Source of the DNA: a virus
Virus genome (UHGV): UHGV-0213869
Direction: 5' to 3' (one strand)
DNA: 10,127 bases
The position numbers were made by a program, and so were the translations under genes. The notes under the pieces were generated by a model. It did no database searches, was not told the origin of the DNA, and saw nothing but the letters and a program-made list of their open reading frames with translations. Of the stretch, positions 1-6,517 are shown piece by piece. The stretch's first letter is position 1. Every line of letters begins with the position of its first letter.

Positions 1-494
1 ATGCCGACGGGCAGGTCGGGCTGCCGGTTCGTGGCGCTGTCCTGACGGTGTATATCGGCTGGAAAGGTTTTGCCCTGGTATGCAAAGGGAAATTTACCGT
101 TGATGAGGTTGAACACCGGGGCGCGCCGGATGTGGTTACCATCCGCGCCCGGAGTGCAGATTTTCGCGGGACGCTCAATTCCCGCCGTGAAGGCTCCTGG
201 CATGACACCACGCTCGGTGCGATTGTTGAGGCGATCGCCTCCCGTAACAGGCTGGAAGCCAGTGTCGCTCCGTCACTGGCCGGAATTAAAATCCCGCACA
301 TCGACCAGTCGCAGGAGTCCGATGTGAAATTCCTGACCCGTCTTGCTGAACGCAACGGCGGTGAGGTGTCGGTAAAAATGGGAAAACTGTTGTTTCTCAA
401 AGCGGGGCAGGGAGTGACGGCCAGCGGTAAAAAAATCCCGCAGGTCACCATAACCCGCAGCGACGGCGACCGCCATCATTTTGCGATTGCTGAC
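1..494 (+). pseudogene. D: Internal fragment of tail protein D (P2 gpD-like), about residues 57-219, encoded on the plus strand, opposite to the rest of the operon
   Basis: Plus-strand frame reads ...DADGQVGLPVRGAVLTVYIGWKGFALVCKGKFTVDEVEHRGAPDVVTIRARSADFRGTLNSRREGSWHDTTLGAIVEAIASRNRLEASVAPSLAGIKIPHIDQSQESDVKFLTRLAERNGGEVSVKMGKLLFLKAGQGVTASGKKIPQVTITRSDGDRHHFAIAD, then leaves the gpD sequence as I recall it. It is open at the left edge of the window. Confidence 0.7.
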
Positions 495-645
495 CGGGCG
501 CGGATGGTGACTACATCCGGTGCGCCCCGGTGTTCAACCTCATCAACGGTAAATTTCCCTTTGCATACCAGGGCAAAACCTTTCCAGCCGATATACACCG
601 TCAGGACAGCGCCACGAACCGGCAGCCCGACCTGCCCGTCGGCAT
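1..645. repeat. Imperfect inverted repeat inside gene D: arm 1..152 is the reverse complement of arm 494..645 (149 of 152 identical)
   Basis: Hand alignment of the reverse complement of 1-152 with 494-645. The three mismatches (arm positions about 509, 512 and 521) are all synonymous third-codon positions in the D frame. Confidence 0.85.
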
Positions 646-811
646 CGTTCAGTTCAATATCAAGCTGGTCAGCCTCAAAGCCCCGGTTATCCGTCAGGGT
701 CATACTCATCAGACGGTCGCTGATATTGCCGGTAATATCCCTGCTGTCGAGCATCAGCATGTAATCCGGCGTCAGCGTACTGCCTGCATCAAATGTCAGT
801 GCATCCAGCAT
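476..811 (-). CDS. D: Tail protein D (P2 gpD-like late control D), N-terminal 108 residues only; ORF ends prematurely in IAK-stop at the orientation breakpoint
   Basis: ATG at 811..809 overlaps the U stop (TAATG). Translation is MLDALTFDAGSTLTPDYMLMLDSRDITGNISDRLMSMTLTDNRGF...VVTIRARSA followed by 3 unrelated codons and a stop at 476-478. Confidence 0.85.
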   Translation of the reverse strand: MLDALTFDAGSTLTPDYMLMLDSRDITGNISDRLMSMTLTDNRGFEADQLDIELNDADGQVGLPVRGAVLTVYIGWKGFALVCKGKFTVDEVEHRGAPDVVTIRARSAIAK

Positions 812-1290
812 TATCCCGCCCCCGTCATATCCGTGAATTTAGTCGCCATACTGCCAGCCTTACCGATGAGCGATTCCGCCTGTTTACCGATATCGCCATA
901 AAGCGCGGCCAGTGATTCATCAACGCGGGTGAGCGACAGCGTAAAATCAATTTTCCGGGGTGTGCCGTCTGCAAAGAAAATACTCCCTGTTTCACTCACC
1001 CTGCTGATGACATACATGCCGTAAATCATGCCAGTGCCATCCAGCAACGGCCACGCCCGGCCTTCCTCTGCCATCAGCCTGAGCGTGGTCATCGTCAGCT
1101 TTCCGCCGGTCAGTTCGGGATAAAGCACACCGGCAAGCGTCATGTTTTCCTCACCCACACCGAGAAACTGATAGGCATCCCGTTTACCAATACGGGAATT
1201 TGACGGCCAGCGATAATCCGATTCACGTTGCATGGTCTGGTGCGGCAGCGTCTGGCGCATAAAAACAAACATCCCTAACGCGAGCATCAT
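811..1290 (-). CDS. U: Phage tail protein U (P2 gpU), 159 aa, intact
   Basis: 159-aa ORF MMLALGMFVFMRQTLPHQTMQRESDYRWPSNSRIGKRDAYQFLGVGEENMTLAGVLYPELTGG..., same length as P2 gpU; sits between T and D as in P2. Confidence 0.93.
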   Translation of the reverse strand: MMLALGMFVFMRQTLPHQTMQRESDYRWPSNSRIGKRDAYQFLGVGEENMTLAGVLYPELTGGKLTMTTLRLMAEEGRAWPLLDGTGMIYGMYVISRVSETGSIFFADGTPRKIDFTLSLTRVDESLAALYGDIGKQAESLIGKAGSMATKFTDMTGAG

Positions 1291-1304
1291 TTTTCGTCAC
1301 CTCC

Positions 1305-2906
1305 TTAACCGTCATGCATCATGCTGGCACGGGCGCGCGCACGTTTATCCCGCTCGTATTTTTCGAGCGCATCCTGTAACTGGCGGTCGAGCTGTGTTCC
1401 CGGTGCATTACCACCCGGCAGGCTGATGTGATATTCGTTTTTACTCTGGTCTACATACGAGCGGCCAGCCGGTGCCGTGACCGGCTGGTAAGCCTGATAG
1501 CCTGCATAAGAGCTGGTCGCCGGAATATAACCACCTGTGCCATACGTGGCGGCATGAGTTCTGGCGGCAGTCTGGTCAAGTGCGTCAGACTCTTTGTTGA
1601 TGACGCCGAGTTTTTCCAGTACCCAGTCAATACCGCTGCGCAGTTTGTTGAACGCATTAAGCGGCAGCATCAGCGCGTCAGCCAGTGCCTGCCCGAACAT
1701 GACGCCCGTGTCACGGCAACGGTTCAGGGTGTCCTGGGTGGCTTTGACCGGGGCAATCAGGTTTTTAAACCACTGCCACGCGGCCTGTAACTTTTCGCCC
1801 AGCCAGTCAAACACCGGTTTCAGTGGCGAGAACAGCTCCCCCACCGGCGCAAATGCTGCTTTCAGCCCTTCAACCACACCACCAAAGAATGCGCTGACAG
1901 GCTCCCAGTATTTACGGATAAGCAACGCCCCGGCGACAATGGCAGCCACCACAGCCACAACCGGCCAGCTAATAGCCCCGATGGCGGTCATAACAGCACT
2001 GCCAACCGTCGTGAAGATTGCCCCCATTGCGCCTGCTGCCGCGATGATGGCATTGATGCCGGTGATAACCGGCCAGGCTACAAGACCAATTGCACCGATG
2101 ATGCCAATCAGCGCCAGCGCGCCACCGGCAATGAGGCCAATGGTTGACGCCAGTGATTTGTTTTTCTTGATCCAGCCGTCGAGTTTTAACACATACTTTG
2201 TGGCCGTCTGCGTGAGATTACGCAGTGCGCCTTCCTGCTGGTCAAACAGGTCAGTCCCCACCGCCTCATAAGCAGACTGAAACTCCTTAAAGTCACCGCC
2301 GAGGTTATCCTGCATGATATTTACCAGCTCGGCGGTCTTCCCGTCTGAGGCTTTAAACGCAGCGGTCAGTTTGTCCAGCTTTCCGGTTGAGGCGGCAGTC
2401 ATCAGCACGGCGGCGGCTGAGCTGGCTTCCTCCCCGAAAATGGTTTTCATGTATTCAGCCTGCTGGGCAGTACCGAGCCGGTTTTTCTCAAAACTGGCCT
2501 GCATTTCTTTCAGAATGGTAAATACTGGTCGGGTGTTTCCCTTACTGTCTGAGGTTTTCACGCCAAGCTCTTTGAGTGCATCCCATGCTTTTCCCGTCGG
2601 TGCCTGCAGGCGACTTAACACGGCACGGCTTCCCGTCCCCGCCATTGAGCCTGTGATTTTTGCATCATGCAGCGCTCCGACCATTGCGGCGGTTTCTTCA
2701 ATGCTGACACCGGCATTTTTTGCCACAGGTGCAGCATAGGTCAGCGCATCGCTCATACCGTCAAAATCGGCGGCGGTTTTGTTCATCGTCATGGAGAGAA
2801 CATCCCCGATATGAGCGACCTTATCGTTTGAAAGCTGAAAGGCGGATTTCATCCCCATCAGCAGGGCAGCGTTTTCTTCCATCGTGCGACGGTTCGCCAG
2901 CGCCAT
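1305..2906 (-). CDS. T: Tail tape measure protein T (P2 gpT-like), C-terminal part, about residues 283-815 (533 aa ORF starting at an internal Met)
   Basis: ORF begins MALANRRTMEENAALLMGMKSAFQLSND... and contains a glycine/alanine-rich hydrophobic stretch typical of tape measure proteins. With the other two pieces the residue count is 815, the P2 gpT length. Confidence 0.88.
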   Translation of the reverse strand: MALANRRTMEENAALLMGMKSAFQLSNDKVAHIGDVLSMTMNKTAADFDGMSDALTYAAPVAKNAGVSIEETAAMVGALHDAKITGSMAGTGSRAVLSRLQAPTGKAWDALKELGVKTSDSKGNTRPVFTILKEMQASFEKNRLGTAQQAEYMKTIFGEEASSAAAVLMTAASTGKLDKLTAAFKASDGKTAELVNIMQDNLGGDFKEFQSAYEAVGTDLFDQQEGALRNLTQTATKYVLKLDGWIKKNKSLASTIGLIAGGALALIGIIGAIGLVAWPVITGINAIIAAAGAMGAIFTTVGSAVMTAIGAISWPVVAVVAAIVAGALLIRKYWEPVSAFFGGVVEGLKAAFAPVGELFSPLKPVFDWLGEKLQAAWQWFKNLIAPVKATQDTLNRCRDTGVMFGQALADALMLPLNAFNKLRSGIDWVLEKLGVINKESDALDQTAARTHAATYGTGGYIPATSSYAGYQAYQPVTAPAGRSYVDQSKNEYHISLPGGNAPGTQLDRQLQDALEKYERDKRARARASMMHDG

Positions 2907-3262
2907 ATTCAGCGAACTGGCCGGAAATATGGCCTCGGTGGGCGCTGCCGGTGTGGGGATTGCGGCGGCGGGAACGATGGCCGGAGTTAAGCTGCTGATG
3001 CCCGGTTATGAGTTTGCGCAGAAAAACTCAGAATTGCAGGCCGTGCTCGGAGTGGCAAAAGACTCCGCCGAAATGGCTGCACTACGCAAACAGGCGCGCC
3101 AGCTCGGCGACAATACCGCCGCCTCGGCAGATGATGCAGCCGGTGCGCAGATTATTATTGCGAAAGCCGGTGGGGATGTTGATGCCATTCAGGCGGCAAC
3201 GCCGGTCACGCTGAACATGGCGCTGGCGAACCGTCGCATGAGGCCATATTTCCGGCCAGTTC
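2885..3262. repeat. Two nested short inverted-repeat pairs bounding the inverted T segment: 2885-2906 with 3217-3238 (22 bp, MALANRR codons) and 2914-2936 with 3240-3262 (23 bp, ELAGNMAS codons)
   Basis: Exact reverse-complement matches read directly from the sequence. Confidence 0.85.
2914..3238 (+). pseudogene. T: Inverted internal segment of tape measure gene T (about residues 182-289), coding on the plus strand
   Basis: Plus-strand translation ELAGNMASVGAAGVGIAAAGTMAGVKLLMPGYEFAQKNSELQAVLGVAKDSAEMAALRKQARQLGDNTAASADDAAGAQIIIAKAGGDVDAIQAATPVTLNMALANRR bridges exactly the end of the N-terminal piece (..ELAGNMAS) and the start of the C-terminal piece (MALANRR..), but in the opposite orientation. 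Confidence 0.8.
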
Positions 3263-3805
3263 CTTTCCGGCCTGATAACGCTGTTTTACTGCGTTAAGTT
3301 TTGCCTGTTGCGCACTGACACGCACCAGCGCATCACGCTGACGGTTAAGCTGTGCGGTGGTTTCACTGATACGGTTTTTCAGTCCCTGCTCATCATGTGC
3401 AAGATTGCGGGTATTAATTCCCACAGCGGCCAGTTCCCGTTGCTGGCGTTTAACGGAATCCGTCAGGTGGTTACATTTCGCCTGTAAGTCCTCCGCCGCA
3501 CGCTTTGCGGATTCCAGCACTTTCGCCTGAGCACGGGTCGGACGTTCGGTGTTTTTAAACTGTGTGGCAAGGGCTTCGGCTTCCTGCCGTGCCTTTTCAA
3601 GTGCATGACCAGTCACGGCAAGCTGTGCGCTGGTCTTGCGAAATCCCTCAATACGGGATGCGTGACCGTTCAGCTCGCGCAGTGATTTTTGTGTTTCCCG
3701 GATATCCCCCGACAGCGACTTACTCGCTGTGCGGATGGATTTAAACGGGCGGGATGCCTGGTCAACAGCCCTGAGCAATACCTGTAATTTTACATTGTTA
3801 CTCAT
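3206..3805 (-). CDS. T: Tail tape measure protein T, N-terminal part (residues 1-189 at 3239..3805), followed by 10 aberrant codons and a stop
   Basis: ATG at 3805 overlaps the E' stop. Translation MSNNVKLQVLLRAVDQASRPFKSIRTASKSLSGDIRETQKSLRELNGHASRIEGFRK...QRYQAGKELAGNMAS, then CDGSPAPCSA-stop, which is antisense of the inverted segment. Confidence 0.88.
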   Translation of the reverse strand: MSNNVKLQVLLRAVDQASRPFKSIRTASKSLSGDIRETQKSLRELNGHASRIEGFRKTSAQLAVTGHALEKARQEAEALATQFKNTERPTRAQAKVLESAKRAAEDLQAKCNHLTDSVKRQQRELAAVGINTRNLAHDEQGLKNRISETTAQLNRQRDALVRVSAQQAKLNAVKQRYQAGKELAGNMASCDGSPAPCSA

Positions 3806-4225
3806 TCGTGTTTCCGCTTCGCCGGAGCGCCTTTTCGCGCCATGTGATGAGTTCGGTCAGGCTCATGGGATACAGTTCTGATGGCGGCCAGTGAAATATC
3901 ACTGCCACATCCGCCATCAGGTCATCGACCGAGAGATTTTTCGGAAACGTCACTGCACCGAGTTCGGCGACAAAAAACCGACCACCTTACCGGCCAGCGC
4001 CACAAGGTCAGGCAGTTCCAGCGCAGCGACTTCCTGCTCGGTCAGCATCGGTGCCGTCATGCGCGGCAGCACCTTAATCAGTGCATCGACTTCGGAGTTC
4101 GCGACCGCTGCCAGACTGACACCGCGCAGCGTCCCGGCATTGGGTTTCATCAGCGTGACCTGTTCGATAACCTGCTCACCACGTTTGACCGGATTGTCCA
4201 GGGTAATGACATTTTCTTTGTTCAT
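3798..4225 (-). CDS. E': E+E' fusion (P2 gpE+E'), made by programmed -1 ribosomal frameshift near the 3' end of E; the extension ends at TAA 3798-3800, overlapping the T start
   Basis: Slippery heptamer TTTTTTG on the minus strand (3977..3971). Reading from it in the -1 frame by hand gives FVAELGAVTFPKNLSVDDLMADVAVIFHWPPSELYPMSLTELITWREKALRRSGNTNE-stop, ending in the ATGAGTAA overlap with T. Confidence 0.8.
3950..4225 (-). CDS. E: Tail assembly chaperone E (P2 gpE), 91 aa
   Basis: 91-aa ORF MNKENVITLDNPVKRGEQVIEQVTLMKPNAGTLRGVSLAAVANSEVDALIKVLPRMTAPMLTEQEVAALELPDLVALAGKVVGFLSPNSVQ; position between FII and T as in P2. Confidence 0.92.
   Translation of the reverse strand: MNKENVITLDNPVKRGEQVIEQVTLMKPNAGTLRGVSLAAVANSEVDALIKVLPRMTAPMLTEQEVAALELPDLVALAGKVVGFLSPNSVQ
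3971..3977 (-). promoter_or_regulatory. Programmed -1 frameshift slippery site TTTTTTG for E/E'
   Basis: Heptamer T6G lies 6 codons before the E stop; the downstream -1 frame is open to the T start. Confidence 0.8.
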
Positions 4226-4281
4226 GGTTTTCTCACTTCTGAATCGGGGTTAACCGGTCAGCCAGGCTGACCGGATGAAAA

Positions 4282-4800
4282 TCACAGGCCGATATTGCGG
4301 CGGTGTTGCTCCAGCCGGTCGACGCCGTTCACCTTCTCAATCATGTTGATGGTGTCGATTTCGACCAGCTCCTTACCGTCCATCGTCAGCCGGAAATAGG
4401 TGCAGACCACGGAGATTTTCGACTCGGTGTCTTCTCCCTGTTTGCCCTCGCCGGTGTCGATTTCTTTCTGACGTCCACGCATGACCACCTCGACGGCCAC
4501 CGTTTCGCCGGTATCGTCGCGCTGGTAAGAGCCTGCAAAACGAATCGGTACGGCATCCACACCGGTTGCGGCGTAAAGCTCCCAGATAACCGAATCCGGG
4601 AAGCCACCGAGCGACCACTCCATTGACAGCGCATCGTCATCAAGGCCGAGGTCTACCGGTGCGCTGCCGTTCATCCCCGCACCGCGATAGTTTTCGAGCT
4701 TACGGGTCAGTTTTGGTAGCGTGACGGACTTCGCGACGCCCTGATAGCTGTAGCCGTTCAGAAAGACGTTCATTAACTTGAGTTTGCGCGGCATTGCCAT
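4282..4800 (-). CDS. FII: Tail tube protein FII (P2 gpFII), 172 aa
   Basis: 172-aa ORF MAMPRKLKLMNVFLNGYSYQGVAKSVTLPKLTRKLENYRGAGMNGSAPVDLGLDDDALSMEW...; same length as P2 FII; directly downstream of FI. Confidence 0.94.
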   Translation of the reverse strand: MAMPRKLKLMNVFLNGYSYQGVAKSVTLPKLTRKLENYRGAGMNGSAPVDLGLDDDALSMEWSLGGFPDSVIWELYAATGVDAVPIRFAGSYQRDDTGETVAVEVVMRGRQKEIDTGEGKQGEDTESKISVVCTYFRLTMDGKELVEIDTINMIEKVNGVDRLEQHRRNIGL

Positions 4801-4812
4801 CGGTCAGGCTCC

Positions 4813-6003
4813 TTAATTGCTGTTAACCGAGGTGACCAGATTTGCCAGGTATTTATCGGTAATACGCTGGCGCAGGGTCAGGTTTTCAAGAGGAGGCACC
4901 GGTGTATAGTCGTAGTCGATATACAGTTTTCCGGCCTTGAGGGTTTCCGCATCGTTGGATTCTTCGCTGAACCAGCAGGTCGCATCCACGATATAGCCGT
5001 TTGTTTTCAGCTCACGGAATTTGGCATTGATGCCGTCAACGATGTCGCGAATCAGCGTTGCGGTGATGGGCTTGTCCACCGCCCACATGTGCGCCTCAGC
5101 CATCGTGTCGGCCATCACCTGCGCGGTGCGGGTGTAGTTTTCAAAGAGGAACAGCGGGTCATCAGAGCAGGTACGGTTACCCCAGAAGCGGAAACCGTCG
5201 CGGCGAATCAGCGTTGTGACGCCTGCCTCGTTCAGCAGGTCAGCATCGGTGCCGGACTCCTGCAAATCCCAGAATACAGATGCGCTGATGCCGGTAACAC
5301 CGTTTACCCCGACGTTGGACAGCGTTTTATGCCAGCCCTGCTCCTGGTCGATTTTAGCACGCAGCCCCAGCGCACGGGCGGTGGCATACGCGGTGGCGGT
5401 AGTGCTGCTGACCGTATCCCATGCGAGGAAATCCGGCCAGATGACCATCAGCTCACGCTGGCTGAAATTCTGGCGGTAGGCTTTCACCTCGGAAATGGTT
5501 TTACAGCCCCATGCGCTGATATACCCGAAAGCGCGCAGCTTCTGACAGACTGATGCCAGTGCAACAGCCACCTCTTTGGTGTCCAGTCCCGGCACGCCGA
5601 GAATACGCGGTTTAACACCGGTTACCGACTCTGCCGCCAGCAGGGCTTTCAGTCCGGTATACTGACCGTTTTCGTCAGTGGTGCCGATGATATTGGAAAC
5701 GGTCTGCGCGAGTTTCGTTTCTTCGTCGTCGCCGGTGCCGTCTTCAACACGCACGACAACGGTGACCGGTTTTGACTGGTCAGCGATGGCCTGCAACGAT
5801 GCCGCCAGCGTGCCTTTTTTACCGGCCTTTGCAATTGCGCTCTGCACATTGGTAATCAGCACCGGTTTATTGAGGGGGAAGGTTTCCGCATCCGCATCGC
5901 TGGCCGTGCAGACCATGCCGACAATGGCAGTGGATACAGTGGAAATGACGCGGGTGCCGTCGTTAATCTCCAGCACCTGCACGCCGTGATGATAGTCACT
6001 CAT
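4813..6003 (-). CDS. FI: Contractile tail sheath protein FI (P2 gpFI), 396 aa
   Basis: 396-aa ORF MSDYHHGVQVLEINDGTRVISTVSTAIVGMVCTASDADAETFPLNKPVLITNVQSAIAKAGKKG...; same length as P2 FI. GGAG ribosome-binding site about 8 nt upstream of the ATG at 6003. Confidence 0.95.
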   Translation of the reverse strand: MSDYHHGVQVLEINDGTRVISTVSTAIVGMVCTASDADAETFPLNKPVLITNVQSAIAKAGKKGTLAASLQAIADQSKPVTVVVRVEDGTGDDEETKLAQTVSNIIGTTDENGQYTGLKALLAAESVTGVKPRILGVPGLDTKEVAVALASVCQKLRAFGYISAWGCKTISEVKAYRQNFSQRELMVIWPDFLAWDTVSSTTATAYATARALGLRAKIDQEQGWHKTLSNVGVNGVTGISASVFWDLQESGTDADLLNEAGVTTLIRRDGFRFWGNRTCSDDPLFLFENYTRTAQVMADTMAEAHMWAVDKPITATLIRDIVDGINAKFRELKTNGYIVDATCWFSEESNDAETLKAGKLYIDYDYTPVPPLENLTLRQRITDKYLANLVTSVNSN

Positions 6004-6107
6004 CCGTTTAACTCCGTGGTTAATGGGTGCAACTATTTTCTGTTGGGCAGTGCATGAGACGCTATTTGACCTGACTGGTCAGTGGATGAAACAACAGATT
6101 AAAGAAA

Positions 6108-6128
6108 AGGCGGGCAATTCGCCCGCCT
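6108..6128 (-). terminator. Rho-independent terminator hairpin (8-bp GC-rich stem AGGCGGGC/GCCCGCCT, loop AATTC), followed on the minus strand by a U-rich tract
   Basis: Stem 6108-6115 pairs with 6121-6128. The minus-strand sequence just 3' of the stem is TTTCTTTAATCT. The plus-strand side has an A-run before the stem and only a weak T tract after it. Confidence 0.6.
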
Positions 6129-6451
6129 GTCCTGATTTGAACTCACTCATTTTCCGACTGACAATTTACATAGCCCAAAAGTTATCAAATCTGACAGTCT
6201 GCTTTGAGTGAGAAGCAGACATTTACTTAACCGGATAGCAAGAGACTTCATACTACAGCTCATACATCATGGTTGATCCCGGAGTTTTCAGCAATGGAAA
6301 TTGCCCACATGATCGTACCGTAACCACATTAGAAGCAGGTTCACTTTGTGAATTTTGATTGTGTCACCCTATCAGTTTTGAATTTTTATAAAAAATATTC
6401 GCAAATTTGTGAATTATGAGAGACATACGAGCATGGACAACCAATGTTACT

Positions 6452-6481
6452 TTCATACACAATGAAGCAACATGATAAAAA
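6452..6481 (+). promoter_or_regulatory. Putative sigma70 promoter of the cargo gene: -35 TTCATA (6452-6457), 18-bp spacer, extended -10 TGaTAAAAA (6473-6481)
   Basis: By-eye match to the consensus in the AT-rich region about 35 nt upstream of the start codon. Several alternative hexamers exist, so this is weak. Confidence 0.25.
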
Positions 6482-6506
6482 TACACTGACTTTAGTAAGT
6501 AAATTT

Positions 6507-6511
6507 AGGAG
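6507..6511 (+). promoter_or_regulatory. Ribosome-binding site AGGAG of the cargo gene, 6 nt upstream of ATG 6518
   Basis: AGGAGattgcgATG. Confidence 0.7.
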
Positions 6512-6517
6512 ATTGCG

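Follow-up and report, generated by a model that had tools for sequence, protein, structure and literature searches.

The inversion with duplicated edges in the tail tape measure gene T is most probably a chimeric product without a function, and fold-back joins of this kind number at least three in the 10,127-nt stretch of viral DNA analysed here (the window). Our preferred reading, to which we give a probability of roughly 0.6, is that the joins of the window are an in-vitro or in-silico chimera drawn from a mix of two P2-like sequences, and we infer that this chimera did not originate in a living cell. The reference throughout is the intact P2-like prophage of E. coli S1-ZIM-01-A, to which all reference coordinates refer.

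Layout of the inverted segment in gene T

The initial annotation described an internal inverted segment of ~325 bp in T, with nested inverted duplications at both edges and a layout other than that of a clean inversion, and BLAST, translations and a repeat finder bear this out. Positions 2914-3238 are the reverse complement of T residues 182-289. The alignment to the intact P2 T gene that it called for gives three blocks, the middle one inverted: whether phage P2 or the closest intact prophage serves as the comparison, the window runs collinearly over 494-2914, matches the opposite strand of the neighbouring 325 nt over 2914-3238, and is collinear again from 3239/3240. The repeat finder recovers both pairs of inverted repeats, namely block X (23 nt, 100% identity) and a second pair at 2882-2914 and 3209-3241 (33 nt, 94%). 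The duplicated core of the latter, block Y, is 30 nt long and consists of a 22-nt exact run (2885-2906), one mismatch (A at 2907 against the equivalent base 3216) and seven further matching bases. Along the plus strand the order is thus A-Y-rc(X M Y)-X-C (Table 1). These repeats are far beyond chance, because across 100 windows simulated with a Markov model the maximum length of an exact inverted repeat had a mean of 13.7 nt and never exceeded 20 nt, and the equivalent region of the intact relative has none longer than 16 nt.

Table 1 Features of the inverted segments, junctions and allele tracts in the window.
Feature	Position	Strand	Description
Second event, inverted gene D fragment	1..496	+	reverse complement of reference 5657-6152
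Phage-P2-type allele tract spanning Ja	390..521		10 informative sites; outer limits 348-703
Gene T collinear 3' part, residues about 290-815	1305..2884	-	PF10145 match 1.8e-35
Block Y, collinear copy, 30 nt	2885..2914	-	reference-type allele at 2907; holds ATG of MALANRR ORF
Junction J1, right end to right end	2914..2915		reference 8421 forward joined to 8716 inverted
Block X, inverted copy, 23 nt exact	2914..2936	+	
Block M, single-copy 272-nt core of inverted segment	2937..3208	+	plus strand encodes T residues about 190-280
Block Y, inverted copy, 30 nt, T residues about 280-290	3209..3238	+	P2 allele at 3216
Phage-P2-type allele tract spanning J2	3216..3335		7 informative sites; outer limits 3091-3439
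Junction J2, left end to left end	3238..3239		reference 8392 inverted joined to 8693/8694 forward
Block X, copy 1, T residues 182-189, collinear orientation, 23 nt exact	3240..3262	-	inverted-repeat pair; alignment
Gene T collinear 5' part, residues 1-181	3263..3805	-	translation; collinear BLAST to P2 and S1-ZIM-01-A prophage
Third event, inverted tail-fibre gene H fragment	9945..10127	+	reverse complement of reference 15532-15714

A segment flanked by inverted repeats, as this one is in its present state, could suggest a programmed invertible element of the Hin/Gin/Cin or inverton type, or recombination between pre-existing inverted repeats, that toggles T expression. The flanking repeats are, however, products of the rearrangement, since no inverted repeat above 16 nt occurs in the region in intact relatives, and this absence of boundary repeats from the collinear state refutes programmed inversion, to which we assign a negligible probability. 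In addition, 53 nt have been added, and, judging from the layout, recombination across either pair of repeats would turn the segment around without removing the extra 53 nt or the frameshift. No recombinase was found among the ten window ORFs scanned with Pfam (tail genes and an FRG-domain gene), none is annotated in the 21-kb locus of the closest relative, and the inverted state occurs in none of the 1,573 E. coli genomes, 97 phage records and 20 plasmid records that carry the region. The initial annotation had already set site-specific recombination aside, and the missing recombinase, the missing pre-existing boundary repeats and the gain of 53 nt all agree with it.

Gene T lies in the same FETUD operon context as in phage P2. 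Its three blocks are 96.6-97.2% identical at the nucleotide level to P2 gene T (tail length tape measure protein, NP_046782; PF10145) and 99.4-99.9% identical to T alleles of E. coli prophages. In contrast to P2 T, the frame in the window is broken into three ORFs, as first described and as the translations show: a 199-aa ORF (T residues 1-189 plus ten junk residues), a 137-aa ORF on the opposite, plus strand that includes T residues 182-289 and, over block M, gives a partial PF10145 match, and a 533-aa ORF that begins with MALANRR at T residue 283. A single continuous gpT ORF of ~815 aa is therefore absent from the window as written and appears only after repair in silico: reversing the flip takes out 53 nt, and the resulting T reads through without interruption for 815 aa and differs from WP_024216728 at one amino acid. 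Draft assemblies, for their part, often break the T region of P2-like prophages into contigs of 250-700 nt.

Further junctions and the alleles around them

The T inversion has company. Three inverted events are present in 10 kb (1-496, 2914-3238 and 9945-10127), each the reverse complement of nearby reference sequence, and they disrupt the essential tail genes D, T and H. At junction Ja (about 494-496), inverted D is joined to collinear D from reference 6001, producing 152-nt arms (1-152 and 494-645) that differ at three sites; the plus-strand ORF at 48-764 matches PF05954. At J3 (9944/9945), collinear H ending at reference 15398 meets the inverted H fragment. Microhomology amounts to 3, 1, 0 and 0 nt at Ja, J1, J2 and J3, without extended imperfect homology. 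Measured in the reference, the jumps at the four junctions cover 344, 295, 305 and 316 bp, and these similar lengths suggest a physical constraint on fragment size. By inspection, no recognition site is shared among the four junction sequences, on which ground we rejected proximity-ligation or restriction-site junctions. Intermolecular blunt ligation of library fragments was likewise rejected, all partners lying within about 300 bp of each other.

Rearrangements aside, only 17 bases differ between the window and the S1-ZIM-01-A prophage, with no mismatch over 522-2913 and 3336-9944. All 17 lie within 106 nt of Ja (about 495) or J2 (3238/3239), on both sides of each, and at every one of them the window carries the allele of phage P2 (NC_001895). 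The remaining 115 informative sites are reference-type, the nearest being at least 148 nt from Ja and J2. With R for reference-type and P for P2-type, the order of informative sites along the window is R13-P10-R92-P7-R10, and the switches fall within identical stretches of 42-182 nt; the reference-type site 347 and the P2-type site 390 are just 43 nt apart. Each junction has the same allele type on its two sides, P2-type at Ja and J2 and reference-type at J1 (sites 2907 and 2937) and J3. As to the source of the P2-type alleles, three other natural lineages match them at just 5-11 of the 17 sites, and a P2-identical T allele is carried by 7 of 1,565 E. coli genomes with gene T. The mosaic of alleles, even if made collinear, was found in no natural genome, the best matches reaching 98.5% (3240-3640) and 99.0% (1-493, reverse-complemented).

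The two copies of a duplicated arm also differ in allele (2907 against 3216 in Y; 125/134/137 against 521/512/509 in D), one copy being P2-type each time. One molecule copied once cannot yield arms of different alleles, and two related templates must therefore have contributed. Gene conversion from a collinear donor after the inversion was considered and rejected, since both tracts extend across an inverted junction, which no collinear tract could do. A diversity-generating retroelement was rejected as well: the substitutions are natural P2 alleles and not adenine-specific.

The arm alleles also bear on a quite different mechanism, in which two staggered double-strand breaks are filled in and joined, as proposed for Drosophila inversions, so that the overhangs (Y, 30 nt; X, 23-24 nt) end up on both sides of the flipped piece. 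This model predicts exactly the order A-Y-rc(X M Y)-X-C, and the breakpoint sequences are indeed inversely duplicated on both sides, with homology-free joins that fit it. We nevertheless regard it as very improbable. It requires end joining, and the Ku/LigD pathway is generally held to be absent from E. coli; it would have to strike three times simultaneously, with overhangs whose lengths are irregular (23 nt, 30 nt and 152 nt or more); and it leaves the allele differences in the Y copies and the 152-nt arms unexplained.

We also searched for the junctions elsewhere. Among 5,426 complete E. coli genomes (1,573 with a match) no place covers 80% of the T-junction region, nor does any of 97 phage or 20 plasmid records at that coverage. 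The exact J1 and J2 strings were not found in GTDB representative genomes, JGI metagenomes or IMG/VR. The exact products of four of the five junction-truncated ORFs have no record, and the chimeric ends of the 137-aa ORF are covered by no protein among 5.8 billion. A 441-aa H fragment matching an ENA metaSPAdes contig was considered as independent support and dismissed, because the alignment shows that J3 is absent there and the truncation coincidental. A look-up of the FRG gene returned lambdoid-prophage contexts only.

Origin of the joins

The initial annotation proposed a fold-back or template switch, or else an artefact. Both stay as options; the weight has moved towards an artefact or mixed templates because of the additional junctions in D and H, the clustering of P2 alleles at junctions and the absence of the junctions from public data. 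If the window is such a chimera, the source DNA sample or read set would hold a pair of related P2-like genomes. The major genome would be identical to the prophage shared by E. coli S1-ZIM-01-A and A3024, and the minor one would carry canonical phage-P2 alleles. Strand-switching chimeras would form during amplification or library preparation, and the assembler would thread through them, merging short P2-type fragments (120-350 nt) into the path of the major genome on both sides. Candidate routes are phi29/MDA-type strand displacement, another polymerase switch, or an assembler path error. The 30 nt of Y would equal k-1 for k=31, as in a de Bruijn overlap signature, but the mismatch in Y, the 23-24 nt of X and the 152-nt D arms leave no consistent k. 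A scaffolder pasting mis-oriented small contigs would account for pieces that tile the reference with overlaps, but the overlaps contain allele mismatches, one gap measures 133 nt and there are no Ns; we retain this only as a sub-variant of the artefact reading.

Several points count against an artefact, which is itself deduced from the sequence. Assemblers normally drop low-coverage chimeric links, and four such links in 10 kb imply an unusually chimera-rich library. The sequence around J1 and J3 is purely reference-type, which means that both templates would have to have been affected by the artefact. For a de Bruijn path to switch between sites 347 and 390, k could not exceed 43 unless true recombinant reads existed. 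Finally, a cell with two templates is biologically plausible, because A3024, the nearest relative, carries two P2-like prophages.

This last point favours a genuine replication or repair error in vivo, which we consider possible but doubtful. Here a nascent strand would switch to the complementary strand ~300 bp ahead, copy back and switch again, in a four-point template switch (3-1-4-2) or a U-turn or MMBIR-like event; if the cell were a double lysogen, the strand would also stray briefly onto a second prophage, of P2 type, and the outcome would be a non-functional tail module with three short inversions that carry inverted duplications. That each inverted junction has one allele type to its left and right is what one would expect if each fold-back were intramolecular, and the damage would be tolerable since prophage tail genes are dispensable to the host. 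Such an origin, however, calls for at least four non-homologous template switches and at least four homologous ones within 10 kb, and for 9 kb that stayed free of any other mutation. It has to place P2-type tracts at junctions and nowhere else among the 115 informative sites, from a donor of the rare canonical P2 type, and to produce an arrangement never seen in the 1,573 E. coli genomes with the gene region. Replication-based template switching is generally described as microhomology-dependent, whereas microhomology at these junctions is at chance level, and the short template switches that have been described typically copy tens of bp, far less than the 325 nt copied here. A more specific version, which we think unlikely, is that the window is a true record of one catastrophic episode of replication or repair, in an E. 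coli cell with two P2-like prophages. A nascent strand would have taken at least four U-turns without homology and hopped homologously several times from one prophage to the other, giving three inversions of about 300-500 bp with inverted duplications, and short donor-allele tracts at alternate junctions.

The two origins differ in what follows from them. If the joins are artefactual, it would be wrong to interpret the window as an invertible element or as a tape-measure gene that became a pseudogene naturally, and it illustrates the signs by which such chimeras might be recognised from sequence alone: several nearby fold-back joins, homology-free junctions, otherwise perfect identity to an intact relative, and foreign-lineage alleles only within about 100 nt of junctions. 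If the joins arose in vivo, multi-template switching between co-resident prophages would kill a prophage tail module in one step, which would be relevant to research on bacterial genome instability and prophage decay.

Comparison with known rearrangements and artefact classes

With the 3-1-4-2 template switch (Löytynoja & Goldman 2017, PMC5453318) the T segment shares a reverse complement overlapping both flanks and nested inverted repeats, and the switch points follow its order in reference coordinates (8392 < 8421 < 8693/8694 < 8716). It departs from that type in its fragment of 325 nt instead of tens of nt, in the P2-type alleles around one junction, in the presence of three events in 10 kb, and in its non-identical arms: a single template gives arms that are identical when formed, whereas the Y copies and the 152-nt D arms differ. 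The single-episode version would be a bacterial, prophage-scale analogue of chromoanasynthesis or MMBIR. The inversions of Ranz et al. 2007 (PMC1885836) have the same end product, with inverted duplications on both sides and homology-free joins, but are large and eukaryotic, need end joining and leave the arm allele differences unaccounted for.

Among artefact classes, chimeras that join nearby sequence in inverted orientation are the main artefact of MDA, making up 85-91% of its chimeras at about one per 10-22 kb, and are a known source of inversions in assemblies (PMC1855051; bioRxiv 10.64898/2026.06.11.730069). The window resembles them in that its inverted joins connect stretches of one molecule lying some hundreds of bp from each other, at a density of the order of one per several kb; its four joins span 295-344 bp, well inside the 10 kb taken as the limit for nearby MDA joins. 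On the other hand, 93.5% of nearby inverted MDA joins show complementarity of at least 2 bp (Lasken & Stockwell 2007, PMC1855051), as against just one of the four junctions here, which counts against an MDA route. Chimeric de Bruijn contigs from strain mixtures share a further trait with the window. Lineage switching alone makes no inverted junctions, and the junction k-mers need read support, but such contigs switch between two lineages of about 97% identity within identical stretches, and the alleles of the window do the same along one contig.

An inverted, edge-duplicated segment in the tape-measure gene

The whole window comes from the part of a P2-like prophage that carries the tail genes, and BLAST gives it ~96.6% identity to phage P2. 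Positions 494-9944 are 99.9% identical to prophages in the complete genomes of E. coli S1-ZIM-01-A and E. coli A3024, each of which has the tape-measure gene T as an unbroken 815-aa gene. Between the sheath gene and G lies a gene for a 444-aa FRG-domain protein matching the PADLOC candidate defence family PDC-S15 (E 7e-99); an identical protein occurs in lambdoid prophages, flanked by hok/gef and DUF977 genes, and the cargo at the fun(Z) position differs in relatives (e.g. Shedu or hypothetical proteins).

Features of the window and their counterparts in L002, the intact prophage locus of S1-ZIM-01-A
Feature	Window	Strand	L002 counterpart or position	Basis
D, U, T, E/E', FII (tube), FI (sheath)		minus		
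FRG-domain gene	6518-7852	plus	position of P2's fun(Z), after FI	
G (tail-fibre assembly), H (tail fibre)		minus	beyond FRG-domain gene	
Inverted gene D piece	1-496		reverse complement of 5657-6152	BLAST
Collinear block	494-2914		ends at 8421	BLAST
Inverted block	2914-3238		reverse complement of 8716-8392	BLAST
Collinear block	3239/3240 onward		from 8693/8694	BLAST
Inverted H piece	9945-10127		reverse complement of 15532-15714	BLAST
P2-type sites near Ja	390-473, 509-521			
P2-type sites near J2	3216, 3266-3335			

Within T, a repeat finder returned two inverted-repeat pairs, one of 23 nt and exact (2914-2936/3240-3262), the other of 33 nt at 94% (2882-2914/3209-3241). Base-level comparison places the true duplicated core of the latter at 30 nt (2885-2914/3209-3238), that is, the 22-nt exact run of the initial annotation plus one mismatch and 7 further matches. 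A chance origin is excluded, since the longest exact inverted repeat in simulated sequences averaged 13.7 nt with a maximum of 20, and the longest in the equivalent region of the intact relative is 16. Block boundaries, set by BLAST against P2 and against L002 (closest relative), give the plus-strand order A-Y-rc(X M Y)-X-C, where Y and X are duplicated in inverted orientation and M is the single-copy core. This is the layout initially described, seen from the opposite strand, and translations bear out the three T ORFs and residue numbers reported with it. When the 272-nt core is turned back in silico and the 53 surplus bases are taken out, an 815-aa T results that differs from the relative's protein at one amino acid. 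Repeats, BLAST blocks, translations and repair together confirm the inverted, edge-duplicated segment.

Could the segment be a programmed inversion? We consider this vanishingly improbable. Site-specific or homologous inversion is excluded on four points: no recombinase gene was found near the segment (window ORFs and the relative's locus), the boundary repeats are missing from the collinear state, the rearrangement gains 53 nt and, from the layout, a flip on either repeat pair never yields an intact T. The first three also uphold the original exclusion of site-specific recombination. Inversion at staggered breaks with fill-in predicts the same product, an inverted-duplication layout (PMC1885836); we regard it as very unlikely.

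Further inverted junctions in D and H

The same BLAST comparison revealed two more inverted pieces, in D and H, and the window therefore contains four inverted junctions, Ja (~495, gene D), J1 (2914) and J2 (3238/3239), both in T, and J3 (9944/9945, gene H), which break three essential tail genes. At Ja, the inverted piece is joined to collinear D beginning at L002 6001, a fold-back that leaves 152-nt inverted arms within window 1-645 (124 nt exact, 3 differing sites). At J3, collinear H ending at L002 15398 is joined to the final 183 nt of the window, whose source lies 134-316 bp further along H and whose far end is outside the window. Reference jumps at Ja, J1, J2 and J3 span 344, 295, 305 and 316 bp, with 3, 1, 0 and 0 nt of microhomology; no extended imperfect homology was found at any of the four, and this level is the expectation for random blunt joins.

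Allele tracts around two of the junctions

Rearrangements aside, the window differs from L002 at 17 bases, all within 106 nt of Ja or J2 and on both sides of each, with no differences in 522-2913 and 3336-9944. The window has the allele of phage P2 at each of the 17 sites, and sites informative between P2 and L002 run R13-P10-R92-P7-R10 (R, reference-type; P, P2-type); the closest reference-type sites to Ja and J2 are at least 148 nt away, and the surroundings of J1 and J3 hold reference-type alleles only. P2 alleles thus occur at the two left-left junctions and not at the others. Three other natural P2-like lineages match at just 5-11 of the 17 sites. The canonical P2 allele at these sites is rare in natural E. 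coli, a P2-identical T allele being present in 7 of 1,565 genomes with this gene.

Because the P2-type tracts are confined around Ja and J2, the duplicated copies differ in allele, both in Y (2907 vs 3216) and in the D arms (125/134/137 vs 521/512/509). One molecule copied once could not produce this, so the sequence had two related templates. A subsequent gene conversion with a collinear donor was rejected, as a collinear tract is unable to cross an inverted junction. No natural genome with this allele mosaic, even collinear, was found.

Origin of the junctions

The T arrangement was absent from all 1,573 matching E. coli genomes (5,426 searched), 97 phage records and 20 plasmid records. Exact junction strings had no match in GTDB representative genomes, JGI metagenomes or IMG/VR, no record was found for four of the truncated ORFs, and no protein out of 5.8 billion covered the 137-aa ORF at its chimeric ends. 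A metaSPAdes contig (ENA ERZ15610526 NODE_19094, 3974 nt) carries the same H/G/FRG region; its ends (1-150, 3877-3974) jump to distant prophage positions, in a baseplate gene and gene D, at ~97% identity, more divergent than its 99.9% core. Either this contig is chimeric as well, or it is what remains of a degraded prophage.

The T feature is most likely not biological, and we put the probability of an in-vitro or in-silico chimera at roughly 0.6. Two P2-like genomes mixed together would have given rise to chimeric molecules or reads, which would then have been threaded into a single assembled path. A mixed-template chimera is the simplest account because three events fall within 10 kb of sequence that otherwise differs from an intact prophage at only 17 bases, because the joins are homology-free with a narrow 295-344-bp span, and because short (120-350 nt) tracts of rare foreign alleles are centred on alternate junctions and absent elsewhere. 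Pure assembler error fits less well, as the reads would have to contain the junction k-mers. A genuine in-vivo event with multiple template switches is plausible because closest relative A3024 holds two P2-like prophages, and we rate it as unlikely, at less than half the weight of a chimera. The original reading, fold-back or template switching or an artefact, is thus supported and sharpened towards an artefact or mixed templates.

Draft assemblies often split T and its surroundings in P2-like prophages into 250-700-nt contigs. T residues ~186-420 recur on such contigs in many NCBI drafts as partial proteins (P0001, P0003, P0010, P0013), in clusters of up to 235 member sequences each. Assemblies thus seem to break frequently in this region, probably owing to multiple P2-like prophages per genome.

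Taken at face value, the sequence leaves T unable to make a tape measure and also breaks D and H, so that the prophage would have no tails. Should the joins be artefacts, what lies beneath them is a normal, intact P2-like prophage. In phi29 amplification the dominant artefact is the inverted chimera that joins nearby sequences, and such chimeras are a known cause of inversions in assemblies (PMC1855051; bioRxiv 10.64898/2026.06.11.730069). However, ~93% of these inverted MDA chimeras have at least 2 bp of complementarity, whereas just one of the four junctions here does, which argues against a textbook MDA origin.
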